DNA of 64,000 bases. It comes from a virus. The stretch is taken from IMG/VR virus record IMGVR_UViG_3300042386_001406, positions 1 through 64,000 of that record; one strand, given 5' to 3'. Shown here piece by piece: positions 4,114 through 10,246 of the stretch (within the stretch, counting starts at the first letter, position 1; each line of letters opens with the position of its first letter). The translations under genes were made by a program, and so were the position numbers. The notes under the pieces are model-generated. The model searched no databases and was not told the DNA's origin. It was given only the letters and a program-made list of their open reading frames with translations.

Positions 4114-4542
4114 ATGAAATGGAATTACTGGGATAAATTAAATCCTGAAGATTATATCGGTTTTGTTTATAAAATCACTAACTTAACAGATGGTAAGTTT
4201 TATATCGGGAAGAAATACTTTTGGTATAATAAAAAGAAAAAACTAACCAAAAAACAACTCGCTGAATTACCATCAACACCAGGCCGTAAACCAACTCATG
4301 AAATAGTTAGAGTTGAAAGTGACTGGAAAACATATTGGGGTTCATCTAAGGAACTACTTGAATCAGTTAAAGTATTAGGTGAGGATCATTTTGAATGTAT
4401 GATACTCATGCCTTGCAAAACCAAAAAACAACTCACATACTACGAAATGCACTACCAGTGCAAATATGAGTGTCTAATTCCAGGTACTAGATCATATAAT
4501 GATAATATATTAGGTAAGTTTTTCACTAAAGACTTGGCCTAA
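4114..4542 (+). CDS. GIY-YIG family nuclease
   Basis: GFVYKITNLTDGKFYIGKK motif. Confidence 0.75.
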   Translation: MKWNYWDKLNPEDYIGFVYKITNLTDGKFYIGKKYFWYNKKKKLTKKQLAELPSTPGRKPTHEIVRVESDWKTYWGSSKELLESVKVLGEDHFECMILMPCKTKKQLTYYEMHYQCKYECLIPGTRSYNDNILGKFFTKDLA

Positions 4543-4569: not shown

Positions 4570-5505
4570 ATGATTAATGCTGCCTTACTGCATACAGTGA
4601 ACAGTGTACTAGGAAAAGGAAAAGAAACGAGTAGTAATAACTACGCGTATAAGTGTCCTTTCTGCAACCATCATAAGCCTAAACTCGAAGTGAACATGGT
4701 ACCTAACATGAAAGGAGAAAATCCATGGCATTGTTGGGTATGTAATAAGAAAGGTAGAACACTGATTGGTTTATTTAAGAAAATAAAAGTTGTTCCTGAA
4801 AAACTATCTGAGTTAAGATCAATACTTGGTTACACACAGAAAGAAGAAGTTATTAGTGATAAAACTAAAGTTGAATTACCTAAAGAATATAAACCACTAA
4901 TTAATCTCGCACGCACAGATATTATAGCTAAACACGCTTTAATGTATTTAAAAAAACGAGGTATTAATAAGGCGGACATATTGAAGTATAATATAGGTTA
5001 TTGTGAAGAAGGCAGGTATGGGGGCCGAGTTATTATACCATCATATGATGCTAATGGTGACTTAAATTACTTTATAGCTCGAGACATCAATCCAGACTCA
5101 AAGAAAAAATATGATGCTCCTAAATGTAATAAAAATGAGATTATAGGACTAGAATATTTTATTAACTGGAATGTACCTGTAATATTATGTGAAGGTATTT
5201 TTGATGCTATTGCTATTAAACGTAATGCAGTTCCATTACTTGGAAAAACATTTTCCAAAGCACTAATGTTAAAATTAGTTCAAAACAATGTTAAAACAGT
5301 ATACGTGTCTTTAGATAAGGACGCTTTAAAAGACGCTCTAAAATACGCTGAAGAATTACTCAATTTAGGTAAAGACGTTTATCTAATTGACATGAAGGAT
5401 AAGGATCCTTCAGAAATGGGCTTCGAAAAATTTACCAAATTAGTTCATGAAGCCGAGCAACTATCTCTAGGTGAACTAATATACAAAAAGCTAGAATTAG
5501 CATGA
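4570..5505 (+). CDS. DNA primase (Zn finger + TOPRIM)
   Basis: CPFC...HCWVC zinc finger, RVIIP, CEGIFD and LDKDA TOPRIM motifs. Confidence 0.85.
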   Translation: MINAALLHTVNSVLGKGKETSSNNYAYKCPFCNHHKPKLEVNMVPNMKGENPWHCWVCNKKGRTLIGLFKKIKVVPEKLSELRSILGYTQKEEVISDKTKVELPKEYKPLINLARTDIIAKHALMYLKKRGINKADILKYNIGYCEEGRYGGRVIIPSYDANGDLNYFIARDINPDSKKKYDAPKCNKNEIIGLEYFINWNVPVILCEGIFDAIAIKRNAVPLLGKTFSKALMLKLVQNNVKTVYVSLDKDALKDALKYAEELLNLGKDVYLIDMKDKDPSEMGFEKFTKLVHEAEQLSLGELIYKKLELA

Positions 5506-6287
5506 TTGATAGAAACGTCAATATAATTAAAGACCCAAAAATCAAACGCATTGTAGAGTACAATGAGGGAGATAGGCAAGTAAATGTTTTAGACTCTCGT
5601 TTTTATAGACGAGGAGAAGAATATTACCCATCAGTAACATCAGTATTAAATTATTTTCCTAAAAATCAATTTTTTCATAATTGGCTTAAAGATGTAGGAC
5701 ATAATAGTGATATTATAGCCTCTAAAGCAGCAAATGAAGGTACTCAAGTACACACTGCAATTGATCGTTTTTTAAACGGAGAAGAAATTCAATGGTTAGA
5801 TCAAAATGGTAGAGCAGAATACAGTATGGATGTATGGAAAATGATTCTTAAGTTTGCTGACTTTTGGAACACACACAAACCAGAACTCATAGTAGGTGAG
5901 TATCATTTATTTTCTGATGAGTATAAGTACGCTGGTACAGCTGACTTAGTTGTTCGTATGAATGAAAAATTATGGTTATTAGATATTAAAACATCTAACT
6001 CACTTCATACATCATATGATTTACAGTTAGCCGCTTACTCTAAAGCATGGAATGAAACACATACTGATAAAATAGAGGAAACAGGTATTTTATGGCTTAA
6101 AGCAAATACCCGTAGTGAAGGTAAAAAAGATAAAATACAAGGTAAAGGATGGGAATTAAAAGTTATAAGTGATATTGAAGCTAACTTTAAAATGTTCATG
6201 AATATATACGAGATATATAAACTTGAAAATCCTAACTTCAAACCCTCAACTGAAACATTACCTACATCAGTCAAAGTTTCTTTTTAA
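5502..6287 (+). CDS. PD-(D/E)XK exonuclease (Cas4/RecB-like phage family)
   Basis: YPSVTSVL, GTQVH, YAGTAD, LLDIKTS, QLAAY motifs. Confidence 0.85.
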   Translation: MIDRNVNIIKDPKIKRIVEYNEGDRQVNVLDSRFYRRGEEYYPSVTSVLNYFPKNQFFHNWLKDVGHNSDIIASKAANEGTQVHTAIDRFLNGEEIQWLDQNGRAEYSMDVWKMILKFADFWNTHKPELIVGEYHLFSDEYKYAGTADLVVRMNEKLWLLDIKTSNSLHTSYDLQLAAYSKAWNETHTDKIEETGILWLKANTRSEGKKDKIQGKGWELKVISDIEANFKMFMNIYEIYKLENPNFKPSTETLPTSVKVSF

Positions 6288-6354
6288 TATTTATCAGTGC
6301 AAATAAAATTGCCAAAATGTTATATAATTATATCTATATAGAATAAACTCTGTT

Positions 6355-6387
6355 AGAGGACGCCTGTGCGTCCTCTTTCTATTTTTT
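6355..6387 (+). promoter_or_regulatory. terminator-like hairpin in the 5' leader of the TonB receptor gene
   Basis: AGAGGACGC-ctgt-GCGTCCTCT followed by TTCTATTTTTT. Confidence 0.6.
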
Positions 6388-6403
6388 AACCAAAAAAACA
6401 TGT

Positions 6404-9400
6404 ATGAAAAAAACAATTCTGTTCTCGGTTTTCAGCTTGCTTGCTTTTGTTGGATTTGGTCAGATTACCACTTCAGCAATTTCAGGTATTGTAATTAACG
6501 AGAAAAAGGAAGTGTTGGTAGGTGCTACAATCCATGCAACCCACCTTCCAACAGGAACGCAGTACACTGCTACTGCAAACAAACAAGGTGTATATGTTTT
6601 ACCTGCTGTGAGAGTAGGTGGACCTTACACAATTCATTCTTCTTATGTAGGATATAAGAAGGGTGAAGTAACAGAAGTTAACACACAGTTAGGTTTAACA
6701 TCTAACGTTGACTTTGTTTTGATTGATGAAGTGAAAGCTCTCAAAGAAGTAGTTATTAGTGGTAATAGTACTTTTTCAAGACAAAAGACAGGTGCCGCTC
6801 AACAATTCGGACGTAGAGAATTAACTTCAATTCCTATTACAGGAGCTAGAACAATTGATGGTATTACCAAGTACAATCCATTTGGTAATGGTACCTCATT
6901 CGGCGCTCAAGACAGCCGTATGAACAACTTCACTATTGATGGTTCTCAGTTCAACAACAACTTTGGATTAGGATCTTCAGCTCAAGCTGGTGGCCGTACA
7001 GGTGCTTCAGCAATCTCACTTGACGCTATTGATCAACTTCAAGTTAACATTGCTCCATTTGACATTCGTCAGTCTGGATTTACAGGTGCTGGTATCAATG
7101 CTGTAACACGCTCTGGTACTAATGACATTGAGGGTAGTGTTTATGGTACTCAACGTAATAACTCATCTCGTTATGTAGGTGATAACGCACGTGGTACTAC
7201 TGTAACAGCACAAAAATTCGATGAAAAAGTATTAGGTTTCCGTTTAGGTGCTCCAATTATCAAAAACAAATTGTTTATCTTTGGTAACTACGAGCAAATT
7301 GATAGAACAGAACCTGGTACCACTTGGATTTCAGCTGGTTCACCTCTTACAGGTAGTCAAGTATCTCGTGTTAGATACTCTGCAATGGATAGTCTTTCTA
7401 AATTCATGAAAGACAAGTTTAATTATACAACTGGTCCATGGGAGGGGTACTCGAATACGAATTCATCTAATAAATTTCTCGTTCGTCTTGATTGGAACAT
7501 CGATGCTAAGAATAAACTTACTGCTCGTTATGTTCACCATAACTCATCAGCTGAGATAAACATTTCTAACTCTCAATCAGCTGGTGCTGGTAACCGTACC
7601 ACTCAGTTTAATGCTATGTCGTTCCAAAACAGTGGATACATTATCCAAGACAACACTCGCTCAGCTGTATTAGAACTTAACTCTAAGTTAACTAATACAC
7701 TTCATAATAACTTGATCGTTTCTTACGATAAGCAAATTGAAGATAGAGCTTATATGAGTAATATGTTCCCAACAATTGATATTCGTGAGGGTTCTGCTAC
7801 TTATACTTCAGTAGGATTTGATCCATTTACACCTGATAACAAGTTAAACTATTGGACATTTAACATTACTAATAACTTGACTAAGTATTTTGGCAAGCAT
7901 ACAGTAGTTGGTGGTGTGAATTTCCAAAGATATCAATCAAACAACTTGTTCTTCCCAGCATCTAATGGTGTTTATATTTTTAATAGTTTGAATGACTTCT
8001 ATACTGCCGCTAATCAATCATTAGCAAATGGTGGTCGTCCTTCAACTTTTGCACCTGCTCGTTTCCAACTTCGCTATTCTGCCTTACCAGGTGGAATTGC
8101 ACCAATGCAAACTTTAGAATCTTATAGAACCGACATTTATCTACAAGATGAATATAACGGTTTTAAAAATCTAAAGCTAACTGCTGGTATTAGAGCAAAT
8201 ATTATTGAAATTGAGAATACTGCTCTAGAAAACCCAGCTATTACAGCAATGACTTTTGCTAATGGTGAAAAATGGAATACAAGTGTAATGCCTAAAACAC
8301 AGGTATTATTTGAACCACGTTTAGGATTTAACTGGAATGTTAAAGGTACAGGTAAAACACAAGTAAGAGGTGGTACTGGTATTTTCACAGGTCGTCCTCC
8401 TCTTGTATTCTTATCTAACCAAATTGGTAATAATGGTGTATTATCAGGATTTATTGATGTATCTGGTGCAGCAGCTGCCGCTTATGGCTTTACTGCTAAT
8501 CCAAATCAGTATTTCATCCCATCAACTCCAACTTTACCATCTACATTTGATTTAGCTTTAACAGATCCAAATTATAAGTTTCCACAAGTATGGAAAAATA
8601 ACTTAGCTGTTGATCAAAAATTACCTTGGTTAGGTTTGATCGCTAGTGTTGAAGTATTGTATAACCAAACAATTAATGCTGTTCATTACTATAACGCTAA
8701 CCTAGATAAGCCAGTTGGTAATTTATTAGGTGTAGATACAAGACCCTTGTATGCAGGAAATGATAATGGTGTTCGTGTAAACGACAACGTATCAATGGCT
8801 GCTGTTTTAACAAACAGAAATGGTGCTTATAATCGTTCTATTACTTATAAATTAGAAAAACCAGTATCTAAAGGTATTTGGGGATATGTAGCATATACAA
8901 ATGCTCAAGCCGAAGACTTTATGAGTGCTGGGTCTATTGCCTCAGGTTCTTGGCAGTCAGCTCAATCGGTATTTGGTAATAATACTCTTAATTTAACAAC
9001 TTCAGATTTCGTAGTTAGAAATCGTATTGTTGGTTTATTAGGATACCGTATTGAAGGTGGTAAGAAATATGGTACTGCTACTACATTAACCTTAGGTTAT
9101 GTAGGATCACAAAACAATCCATTCTCATATATTGTTGCTGGTGATTTGAATGGTGACCGTGTAAGTAATAACGATTTGATATTTGTACCACATAAAGCAT
9201 CTGATATTCGCTTTGCCCCATTAACTGTGGGTACAGGAGCTACAGCTGTAACTTACACTGAAGCTCAACAACAAGCTGCTTTCGATGCATTTATTAATCA
9301 AGATCCATATTTGTCAACTCGTAGAGGACAATATGCTGAAAGAAATGGATTAGCATTACCTTTCTTACATAGATTTGATCTATCAGCCGCTCAAGATTTC

Positions 9401-9682
9401 TTTGTAAAGATTAAAGGTAAGCGTAACAGCTTCCAAATCCGTGCTGATATCTTGAACTTTGGTAATATGTTAAGTAACAAATGGGGTGTATCACAACGTG
9501 CTGGTGCTCCACAATTGTTGAACTTTGTTAGCCGTGACGCTGCAGGTGTTCCAACATATAGATTATCAACTCAACGTGATGCAACAAGTACTTACTTAGC
9601 AAAAGATACATATCAATACAATTCATCAGTATTTGATGTGTGGACAGCTCAGTTAGGTATTCGTTATACTTTCGGTAAGTAA
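6404..9682 (+). CDS. TonB-dependent outer-membrane receptor (Oar-like, with N-terminal carboxypeptidase-regulatory-like domain)
   Basis: Signal peptide; QITTSAISG...YTI N-domain; plug motifs NNFTIDG and INAVTRSGTN; PRLGFNW; C-terminal QLGIRYTF beta strand. Confidence 0.9.
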   Translation: MKKTILFSVFSLLAFVGFGQITTSAISGIVINEKKEVLVGATIHATHLPTGTQYTATANKQGVYVLPAVRVGGPYTIHSSYVGYKKGEVTEVNTQLGLTSNVDFVLIDEVKALKEVVISGNSTFSRQKTGAAQQFGRRELTSIPITGARTIDGITKYNPFGNGTSFGAQDSRMNNFTIDGSQFNNNFGLGSSAQAGGRTGASAISLDAIDQLQVNIAPFDIRQSGFTGAGINAVTRSGTNDIEGSVYGTQRNNSSRYVGDNARGTTVTAQKFDEKVLGFRLGAPIIKNKLFIFGNYEQIDRTEPGTTWISAGSPLTGSQVSRVRYSAMDSLSKFMKDKFNYTTGPWEGYSNTNSSNKFLVRLDWNIDAKNKLTARYVHHNSSAEINISNSQSAGAGNRTTQFNAMSFQNSGYIIQDNTRSAVLELNSKLTNTLHNNLIVSYDKQIEDRAYMSNMFPTIDIREGSATYTSVGFDPFTPDNKLNYWTFNITNNLTKYFGKHTVVGGVNFQRYQSNNLFFPASNGVYIFNSLNDFYTAANQSLANGGRPSTFAPARFQLRYSALPGGIAPMQTLESYRTDIYLQDEYNGFKNLKLTAGIRANIIEIENTALENPAITAMTFANGEKWNTSVMPKTQVLFEPRLGFNWNVKGTGKTQVRGGTGIFTGRPPLVFLSNQIGNNGVLSGFIDVSGAAAAAYGFTANPNQYFIPSTPTLPSTFDLALTDPNYKFPQVWKNNLAVDQKLPWLGLIASVEVLYNQTINAVHYYNANLDKPVGNLLGVDTRPLYAGNDNGVRVNDNVSMAAVLTNRNGAYNRSITYKLEKPVSKGIWGYVAYTNAQAEDFMSAGSIASGSWQSAQSVFGNNTLNLTTSDFVVRNRIVGLLGYRIEGGKKYGTATTLTLGYVGSQNNPFSYIVAGDLNGDRVSNNDLIFVPHKASDIRFAPLTVGTGATAVTYTEAQQQAAFDAFINQDPYLSTRRGQYAERNGLALPFLHRFDLSAAQDFFVKIKGKRNSFQIRADILNFGNMLSNKWGVSQRAGAPQLLNFVSRDAAGVPTYRLSTQRDATSTYLAKDTYQYNSSVFDVWTAQLGIRYTFGK

Positions 9683-9707
9683 TATAGAACGTTAGTTTCT
9701 AATATAT

Positions 9708-9740
9708 AAGTGGCTCGGAGAAATCCGGGCCACTTTTTTT
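9708..9740 (+). terminator. intrinsic terminator
   Basis: AAGTGGCTCGGA-gaaa-TCCGGGCCACTT followed by a T run. Confidence 0.9.
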
Positions 9741-9741
9741 A

Positions 9742-9768
9742 TTGACCGCGACTCCTGGCGTATCTTTA
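9742..9768 (+). promoter_or_regulatory. host-type (Bacteroidota-like) promoter
   Basis: TTGACCGC...TATCTTTA, with 16 nt between TTG and the TAnnTTTA box; paralleled at 10030-10056. Confidence 0.55.
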
Positions 9769-9791
9769 GTGTATAATAAAAATTGAAAGTT

Positions 9792-10028
9792 ATGAATAAC
9801 GAGATTAAAGAAATGAGTATTTGTGAGGTCATGGATATTCTTTATCCGAATTTTGAAGATCAAATTCAGTTATCGTGGGAGGAAGAGTGTGATGTTGTGT
9901 TGAATTTTTGTAAACAACATAACTATATGTTATACGAACGTGTTCGTGAACAGTTTTTCAAATGGGAAGGTTATGATTTAGCGGTCAAAGGTGGTTATAG
10001 TGGAGTTGTTTATAGTGACTTAAGCTAA
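9792..10028 (+). CDS. hypothetical protein
   Basis: ORF after the promoter; ATG at 9792 preferred to TTG at 9783. Confidence 0.6.
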   Translation: MNNEIKEMSICEVMDILYPNFEDQIQLSWEEECDVVLNFCKQHNYMLYERVREQFFKWEGYDLAVKGGYSGVVYSDLS

Positions 10029-10073: not shown

Positions 10074-10235
10074 ATGCAATTAAAAGAATCAAAAACAAAT
10101 TGGCATTTTAATATTAGTTTAGCCAAATCATGTCTACGAATTATGGCTGGAGTAACACTAATTAGAGGTGAACTATTAATATCAGGTGTATTATTTATAT
10201 TAGCTGAAGTATTAGGTATTATTGAAGAATTTTAA
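10074..10235 (+). CDS. small membrane protein (53 aa, not in ORF track)
   Basis: MQLKESKTNWHFNISLAKSCLRIMAGVTLIRGELLISGVLFILAEVLGIIEEF; fills the gap after the promoter. Confidence 0.75.
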   Translation: MQLKESKTNWHFNISLAKSCLRIMAGVTLIRGELLISGVLFILAEVLGIIEEF

Positions 10236-10246
10236 AAAAATAAGTT

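Follow-up and report, generated by a model that had tools for sequence, protein, structure and literature searches.

A TonB-dependent transporter gene among phage genes: a candidate auxiliary uptake gene of Oar-type architecture in phages of Flavobacteriales-like hosts

The DNA analyzed here, hereafter the window, is a stretch of 64,000 nucleotides that forms the first 64 kb of a 76.5-kb virus record of IMG/VR (IMGVR_UViG_3300042386_001406), a linear fragment estimated by CheckV to be 48% complete. The window carries a gene (6404-9682, + strand) for a predicted TonB-dependent transporter (TBDT) of the outer membrane. There is, in our judgment, an even chance that this gene is an auxiliary outer-membrane uptake gene of Oar-type architecture in a large tailed phage that infects a Flavobacteriales-like host. 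The evidence comes from the predicted fold of the protein, the phage genomes in which the gene recurs, its phylogeny and selection, and the genes that take its place in related phages.

The transporter gene and its predicted product

The gene is a single + strand open reading frame (ORF) with an ATG start, 1092 codons and a stop codon, free of internal stops. Its features are as follows (aa, amino acid residues).

6404-9682, + strand: TBDT gene, 1092 aa plus stop; from the ORF, Pfam, AlphaFold2 (AF2) and structural alignment
6404-6460, + strand: predicted signal peptide, aa 1-19, MKKTILFSVFSLLAFVGFG followed by QITT, with predicted cleavage before the invariant Gln20; predicted local distance difference test (pLDDT) <50
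6479-6721, + strand: N-terminal extension, predicted CarboxypepD_reg beta-sandwich, aa 26-106; PF13620 E 2.5e-15, strands at aa 24-106
6740-6763, + strand: TonB-box-like LKEVVISG, aa 113-120, in a disordered linker; E115 and V116 conserved
6776-7123, + strand: predicted plug domain, aa ~125-240; from the VIA alignment to FusA, model residues 125-1090 against chain residues 60-867
7130-9673, + strand: predicted beta-barrel, aa 243-1090; PF25183, DSSP strand pattern, FusA Z 34.1 over 685 residues

In Pfam searches the product matched CarboxypepD_reg at aa 26-106 and OMP_b-brl_4 (PF25183) at aa 234-1022 (E 4.5e-47), and a match to PF13715 (E 3.2e-09) was found beside that to PF13620, together covering aa 26-118. 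The Pfam Plug family (PF07715) gave no match to the protein at E 0.01 and only 14.5 bits on one homologue. The N-terminus consists of MKK and a hydrophobic stretch, followed by G and Q on either side of the putative cleavage site, as read from the sequence itself rather than by a signal-peptide predictor, and Q20 is invariant across 45 aligned homologues. The C-terminal strand ends in GIRYTFGK; in the homologue alignment F1090 is kept in at least 90% of the sequences and Y1088 is invariant. The protein thus appears to possess both a Sec signal peptide and an outer-membrane targeting end. The residues E115 and V116 of LKEVVISG are conserved in at least 90% of the 45 homologues, and the linker around it (aa 112-122) has pLDDT <50. 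The position of this putative, sequence-based box matches that of the TonB box of Oar (E118/I122; PMC6434023). By its CarboxypepD_reg domain, predicted to follow the signal peptide and to precede the putative TonB box, the phage TBDT is assigned to the Oar type.

The AF2 model, based on a 45-sequence alignment, has a pLDDT of 87 and a predicted template modelling score (pTM) of 0.83, with a plug of mixed alpha/beta structure and a barrel that ends at residue 1090. The strand pattern of the barrel fits 22 strands with long extracellular loops, the strands having been counted by hand in the DSSP output and not from coordinates. The best Foldseek match was the ferredoxin receptor FusA (E 2.7e-35), which VIA-align superposed on model residues 125-1090 with Z 34.1 and a root-mean-square deviation of 4.1 Å over 685 residues. 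About 50 solved TBDTs were found at Z 29-34, spanning model residues from ~92/125 to 1090. The alignments to FusA, PirA and YddB start at model residues 121-125 and chain residues 31-60, so that the plug is included. The ORF is confidently predicted to fold as a complete TBDT. The first-pass annotation of this DNA had described an intact 1092-aa TonB-dependent receptor, and the ORF, the Pfam matches, the AF2 model (pLDDT 87) and the FusA alignment (Z 34) confirm that description. Since so many TBDTs are tied at Z 29-34, FusA as the top match says nothing on the ligand or substrate.

Among 29 phage copies of the protein the plug is the least variable region, with an entropy of 0.06-0.24 over aa 141-240. 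The entropy profile shows the N-terminal domain as the most variable part, and several loop regions also belong to those that vary most.

Phage carriers, ancestry and selection

All long ORFs of the window are located on the + strand. Upstream of the TBDT gene are found genes for a GIY-YIG SegE-like endonuclease (4114-4542), a primase (4570-5505) and a PD-(D/E)XK exonuclease (5502-6287), and downstream a gene for a P-loop kinase and, later, those for TerL, the portal and the major capsid protein (MCP). The gene is indeed embedded among phage genes, as stated in the first-pass annotation, with the replication block on one side and the kinase and head genes on the other. Mobile-element scars had been reported missing, and no transposase or integrase gene adjoins the TBDT gene, but the SegE-like gene is a homing-endonuclease gene two genes upstream of it and of the variable slot described below; it is kept in relatives at 45-94% identity. 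The GC content of the TBDT gene is 0.357, against ~0.32 around it, without a composition break. The claim that the codon style resembles that of the capsid gene is compatible with the data, but the evidence is weak because all compared sequences are AT-rich. The relative synonymous codon usage of the TBDT gene correlates at 0.81 with the MCP gene, at 0.89-0.91 with the pooled phage genes and at 0.74 with a Flavobacterium orthologue.

Large outer-membrane transporters had been called uncommon phage cargo. This holds for INPHARED, where tblastn against 50,697 records gave 1 match, a 6-kb fecal contig at 31% identity, but not for IMG/VR, where a pattern scan revealed 43 loci with homologues at 70-92% identity, most of them full-length and several cut by contig ends. 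Clustering of the flanking ORFs assigned these loci to gene contexts A-H, the window belonging to context A. The gene occurs in at least 7 different neighbourhoods, all phage-like and dense in small ORFs of unassigned function, among which are genes for an endolysin-like PG_binding+GH19 protein, ThyA, a ClpB-like ATPase, an M23 peptidase and GroEL. Two carriers are complete by direct terminal repeats (321,283 bp and 179,381 bp), and their homologues are located at ~127 kb of 321 kb and at ~85 kb of 179 kb, respectively. The 179,381-bp genome (G002), which has the same context, keeps the primase-exonuclease-TBDT gene order of the window. The gene thus lies within bona fide phage genomes and away from contig ends and prophage borders.

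An artefact might still be suspected, either a chimeric assembly or bacterial DNA taken for viral, as the record is a linear, incomplete fragment and two near-identical homologues occur in metagenome-assembled genomes (MAGs) labelled Gammaproteobacteria and Cyanobium (L045, L059). These were the only matches above 80% among GTDB species representatives. Both contigs hold the same phage genes around the TBDT gene and are thus to be regarded as mis-binned phage fragments; such an error may give rise to wrong host or taxonomic assignments. Apart from these two contigs the best cellular identity was 62% in 401 Flavobacteriales genomes and 60% in a GTDB pattern scan. Furthermore, 10 or more independent assemblies contain the exonuclease-TBDT junction, and the 179-kb carrier is terminal-repeat-complete. 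Together with the even composition, these data effectively refute an artefact; the concern about a chimera is ruled out by the recurrent junctions, the two terminal-repeat-complete carriers and the want of a near-identical cellular genome, and the gene is genuinely phage-borne.

Several carriers showed further features. Two large ones have a second, different, Plug-containing TBDT on the - strand (L159, G003:2066-2335; L160, G004:70954-71211); the open frames measure 835 and 764 aa, and that of G004 directly adjoins the Oar-type copy. In some loci of context C a GroEL gene follows the TBDT gene. In contexts E and F it is followed by a gene for a signal-peptide-bearing Endonuclease_NS (NucA-type) protein (L014:13355-13990; L021:13355-14505), in one of the two contexts with a gene for an AAA_28 P-loop protein in between. 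The TBDT and the Endonuclease_NS protein may form a scavenging module. In one homologue (L044:1498-4676) the TBDT copy is disrupted by a frame switch, with ~21 codons missing between aa 297 and 319, which points to a pseudogene or to a fault in the assembly.

An IQ-TREE phylogeny of 77 full-length proteins grouped all phage copies, along with the two mis-binned contigs, as a single clade that received a value of 100 in the Shimodaira-Hasegawa-like approximate likelihood ratio test (SH-aLRT). Its sisters are genes of Flavobacterium and Flavobacteriales MAGs, 56-62% identical, and of one unclassified Bacteroidota MAG, while Saprospiraceae, Spirosomataceae and Chitinophagales branch further out. 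The comparison with cellular receptors proposed in the first-pass annotation thus gave a phage-only clade that is sister to chromosomal Flavobacteriales genes. In the cellular sister loci the TBDT gene is accompanied by pgi, a gene for a fasciclin-domain protein with a lipoprotein-signal-like N-terminus, purH and mreB. The Bacteroidota host proposed earlier is supported by the sister position of the clade, the invariant Gln20 and an A-rich leader without a Shine-Dalgarno sequence.

For 29 distinct phage copies (382 usable pairs) the pairwise ratio of nonsynonymous to synonymous divergence (dN/dS) had a median of 0.13 (range 0.03-0.23), with dS up to ~2. The low ratio at such a synonymous divergence shows that the gene has long been kept under strong purifying selection in phages. 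It might otherwise be a recently captured host gene, neutral or decaying, without a role for the phage. Such a passenger would explain why the closest relatives lack the gene and why one homologue, L044, is disrupted. However, synonymous divergence is near saturation over 29 intact copies at dN/dS 0.03-0.23, the phage clade is separate from all cellular sequences and nearly all recovered full-length copies are intact. This reading, which the selection data contradict, is given only a very slight chance.

Cassette boundaries, expression signals and the variable slot

The elements that surround the coding sequence are the following.

5502-6287, + strand: PD-(D/E)XK exonuclease gene, left border of the variable cargo slot; 47 related loci
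6276-9701, + strand: insert relative to the closest relatives lacking the TBDT gene (cassette plus upstream hairpin); from blastn
6287-6294, + strand: ATATTTAT box, recurrent promoter-like phage motif; backbone, overlapping the exonuclease stop codon
6355-6376, + strand: terminator-like GC-rich hairpin with T tract (9 pairs, 6 of them GC), between box and ATG
6373-6403, + strand: leader, T-rich and then A-rich (TATTTTTTAACCAAAA...), conserved across contexts and travelling with the coding sequence
9708-9735, + strand: predicted intrinsic terminator, 12-bp stem and T-run; backbone, directly after the exonuclease gene in relatives lacking the TBDT gene

Use of the exonuclease as a backbone marker yielded 47 related loci. 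In blastn comparisons with four of them (L144, L114, L115 and L116; exonuclease 90-92% identical) homology ends at window positions 6263-6278. Against L144 it stops at 6275 and resumes at 9702, where 9702-9811 corresponds to L144 6800-6911, a stretch that starts just after the L144 exonuclease stop codon. Since homology resumes at 9702, the terminator at 9708-9735 belongs to the backbone. The synteny in relatives, which the first-pass annotation had proposed to examine, thus shows a conserved gene order in G002 and an insert bounded at 6276-9701 relative to phages without the TBDT gene. Against L002, which has an unrelated context, only the leader and coding sequence are homologous (6373-9685, 86% nucleotide identity). 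In agreement with this, the tree of the phage clade is decoupled from the backbone: the window groups with L002, and other context-A loci group with loci of context C or E. An approximately unbiased (AU) test rejected the monophyly of the seven context-A copies (delta log-likelihood 752, p ~1e-64), a group that was named after the tree had been seen. The TBDT gene has moved between unrelated phage backbones as a unit of leader and coding sequence.

The ATATTTAT box occurs in 23 + strand copies in the window (e.g. at 694, 4093, 6287, 10723, 25614, 27233, 29154, 36977 and 37671). Of these copies, 21 lie at most 120 nt upstream of a + strand gene start, against ~3 expected by position alone, and mostly 12-31 nt before the ATG, among others ahead of the TerL and portal genes. 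The box is probably the phage's own promoter. The copy at 6287-6294 is located 117 nt before the TBDT start. The gene had been credited with its own promoter region and terminator. The terminator is supported by the 12-bp-stem hairpin and T-run at 9708-9735, and an equivalent hairpin follows the stop codon in every phage homologue. The promoter region is supported by the box but is called into question by the terminator-like hairpin at 6355-6376 that intervenes before the ATG. A hairpin with a T-run precedes the gene in most phage loci (contexts A-E, G and H), with unrelated stem sequences, and the three F-context loci shown have no such hairpin. The leader hairpin could shield the cassette from transcription that arrives from upstream, or the cassette could be expressed only upon read-through.

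The A-rich leader of the TBDT gene contains the only exact copy of TATTTTTTAAC in the window. Cellular orthologues have boxes of the TAnnTTTG type (Bacteroidota -7-type), none of which is found ahead of the phage copy. A host-type -7 box for the TBDT gene was therefore considered and dropped: TA..TTTG is not enriched upstream of window genes (3 of 47 copies) and GTATATTTG occurs at chance level. That the T-tract TATTTTTT represents a degenerate -7 box is speculation. In four phage loci (L004, L005, L008 and L045) inverted or 11-bp-spaced repeats of the TTACA...TGTAA type are located ~60-90 nt upstream of the TBDT start, downstream of the promoter box and ahead of the leader hairpin, and these repeats or palindromes resemble an operator or a Pho box. 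Where relatives of the same context carry them, the window has only an AT-only palindrome, ATATAATTATAT (~6321-6332).

In related phages the position behind the exonuclease is occupied by different genes. In L118 (6826-9786) it holds a 986-aa PF25183 TBDT that is 28% identical to the window TBDT, and in L147 (6908-9424) an 838-aa TBDT with CarbopepD_reg and Plug domains. In L122 (6812-10257), and also in L125, a gene for a 748-aa TBDT with Plug and OMP_b-brl_3 domains overlaps one for a 400-aa lipoprotein, and a glycosyltransferase family 2 (GT2) gene follows. The slot contains a Porin_O_P protein (phosphate porin) in L115 (7226-8005), a 388-aa lipoprotein in L116 (6820-7986) and a metallophosphoesterase in L114, L117 and L139. 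A small hydrophobic ORF (MQLKESKTNWHF..., 10076-10237 in the window) forms the conserved right border of the slot in L114, L115, L137 and L144. It is tentatively suggested that the slot is a dedicated, exchangeable site for outer-membrane cargo, in which hairpin-bounded cassettes (at least 4 TBDT types, a phosphate porin and lipoproteins) replace each other. In this proposal the Oar-type cassette is spread across at least 7 unrelated backbones, expression is made conditional by the leader hairpin, and the phages tune the uptake surface of Flavobacteriales to local limitation. Such a scheme is possible, though on balance doubtful.

Proposed function and comparison with known systems

In the proposed role as an uptake gene, the TBDT gene would be derived from the host and carried as a discrete auxiliary cassette. 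Its product would be exported by the host Sec system and inserted in the outer membrane during infection by the host beta-barrel assembly machinery (BAM). The host TonB-ExbBD complex would energise it, a dependence suggested by the finding that no TonB C-terminal domain (TonB_C) was detected in the six phage records searched, i.e. the record of the window and five large carriers. The transporter would then add to or replace the uptake of a nutrient in short supply, and the infected cell would thereby continue to supply phage replication. Uptake is favoured because the putative TonB box and the plug are the most conserved parts, because constraint is strong and because the alternatives in the slot are other uptake proteins. 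Among these alternatives the phosphate porin and the pairs of TBDT and lipoprotein, together with the exported nuclease and P-loop kinase neighbours in contexts E and F, weakly hint at a substrate derived from phosphorus compounds or nucleic acids.

Several findings weigh against this proposal. The closest relatives (exonuclease 90-97% and primase 89-95% identical) have no TBDT gene behind the exonuclease, which indicates that the gene is dispensable. A terminator-like hairpin stands between the sole recognisable promoter box and the ATG. A barrel produced for the outer membrane during lytic infection has little time in which to be of benefit. The substrate is not readable from the fold, with structural matches tied across siderophore, B12, colicin and ferredoxin receptors, and PHROGs, NCBIfam (E up to 1) and PDB sequence searches gave no match for the TBDT; the attempt to derive a substrate from sequence or structure thus failed. 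Finally, TBDTs are classic phage receptors, and a role in remodelling of the cell surface fits the same data.

In such a role the phage barrel would dilute, replace or mask a host TBDT that serves as receptor, or act as a decoy on vesicles or debris, and would in this way curb superinfection or reduce the number of progeny lost to lysed cells. The structural matches include the FhuA-pb5 and FhuA-Llp complexes, and a recent preprint proposes this role for outer-membrane proteins of huge phages, citing lambda Lom-LamB (bioRxiv 10.64898/2026.10.24.761521). A gene tree decoupled from the backbone is expected if alleles track host strains or competitors, and the surface-exposed loops and the N-terminal domain are the variable parts of the protein. 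However, the plug and the putative TonB box are conserved more strongly than the rest of the protein, and a passive decoy or mask would have no use for them. The slot may hold a phosphate-selective porin or another type of transporter instead, for which uptake is the simpler explanation, and the overall pairwise dN/dS of 0.13, a whole-gene and not a site-wise value, gives no sign of diversifying selection. Remodelling of the surface is considered unlikely, though it is the main rival of uptake.

The domain architecture is that of Oar (CarboxypepD_reg extension, putative TonB box, plug and barrel), and it can be asked whether the phage TBDT moves a phage or host protein outward, for example the adjoining exported nuclease of some phages. 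The signal-peptide-bearing Endonuclease_NS protein encoded after the TBDT in contexts E and F would suit such a function. However, the window phage has no exported nuclease beside its TBDT gene, and among the TBDTs of Bacteroidetes no other architecture is as common as the Oar type, which has mostly been connected with import (PMC6434023). Export is accordingly regarded as improbable.

Returning to uptake, an outer-membrane barrel is at first sight an unlikely auxiliary gene, since it takes 3.3 kb, depends on export and assembly by the host and pays only if the cell feeds on. Flavobacteriales dominate the turnover of bloom-derived organic matter. The retention and spread of the TBDT gene among lake phages would imply that phage yield in these bacteria is limited by outer-membrane uptake or by the composition of the cell surface. 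Since phages with and without the gene occur naturally, and others bear a different cassette in the same slot, a comparative experiment is in effect already in place, and these variants could help to assign a substrate to PF25183, a widespread, uncharacterised transporter family of Bacteroidota.

Phage-encoded 22-stranded outer-membrane proteins, including a TonB-dependent receptor and many freshwater cases, are already known from the preprint (bioRxiv 10.64898/2026.10.24.761521, Oct 2026), the only earlier report found in the literature on such receptors in freshwater phages. It is a structure-based survey of phages >200 kb and describes 22-stranded barrels in huge phages, among them a transcribed TonB-dependent receptor in Lak phages. 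Like the TBDT of the window, those barrels belong to a host-related 22-strand class, are frequent in freshwater phages and are linked to Bacteroidota hosts. They are often encoded near transport genes, and ideas of uptake and of receptor interference were both raised. Many of the carriers reported here measure ~160-180 kb and so are too small to count as huge phages, and the accessible text contains no description of an Oar-type clade, of monophyly, of cassette boundaries or of a variable slot. As far as could be found, the single phage clade, the long-term constraint, the exact boundaries of the cassette, the variable cargo slot and the spread across many backbones, with phages <200 kb among them, are new.

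The Oar subclass of TBDTs is the dominant form in Bacteroidetes (PMC6434023). Oar of Myxococcus xanthus shares with the phage TBDT the CarboxypepD_reg extension, the plug, a 22-strand barrel and a length of ~1060-1090 aa, and its TonB box corresponds in position (near 115-120) to the putative box of the phage protein. Oar is needed for secretion of the protease PopC and has a dedicated Ton system; the likeness is one of architecture and not of sequence comparison. FusA (PDB 4zgv; Z 34.1 over 685 residues) and YddB (PDB 6ofr; Z 29.0 over 676 residues) are the best structural matches and, like the phage protein, large TBDTs of plug and barrel, but they are only 11-13% identical to it and have no CarboxypepD_reg extension, and dozens of siderophore and B12 transporters score within ~4 Z units. 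A TBDT of the SusC/RagA type, as found in polysaccharide utilisation loci (PUL), was considered and rejected, as the window has no adjacent lipoprotein or SusD partner, NCBIfam gave no match and SusC ranks below classical TBDTs.

The closest cellular counterparts are the chromosomal Flavobacteriales orthologues (for example L046, L048 and L062 of Flavobacterium MAGs; L047; L077; L170), which have the same length and domain order, are 56-62% identical and are sister to the phage copies in the tree. They share with the phage TBDT a signal peptide followed by Gln and an A-rich leader. They differ in their housekeeping neighbourhoods, in Flavobacterium with a fasciclin-domain protein encoded directly after the TBDT that was not taken by the phage, and in the TAnnTTTG boxes, which are absent ahead of the phage copy. 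No member of the family has been characterised.

The cyanophage genes psbA and pstS are host-derived auxiliary genes that copy a membrane or uptake function of the host, with measured expression and function. Unlike their products, the phage TBDT, known here from sequence, has to cross two membranes and to be assembled by BAM within the latent period. The TBDT gene resembles psbA and pstS in forming a phage clade, in its purifying selection and in its patchy distribution among relatives, and, like them, it is thought to sustain the physiology of the host during infection.

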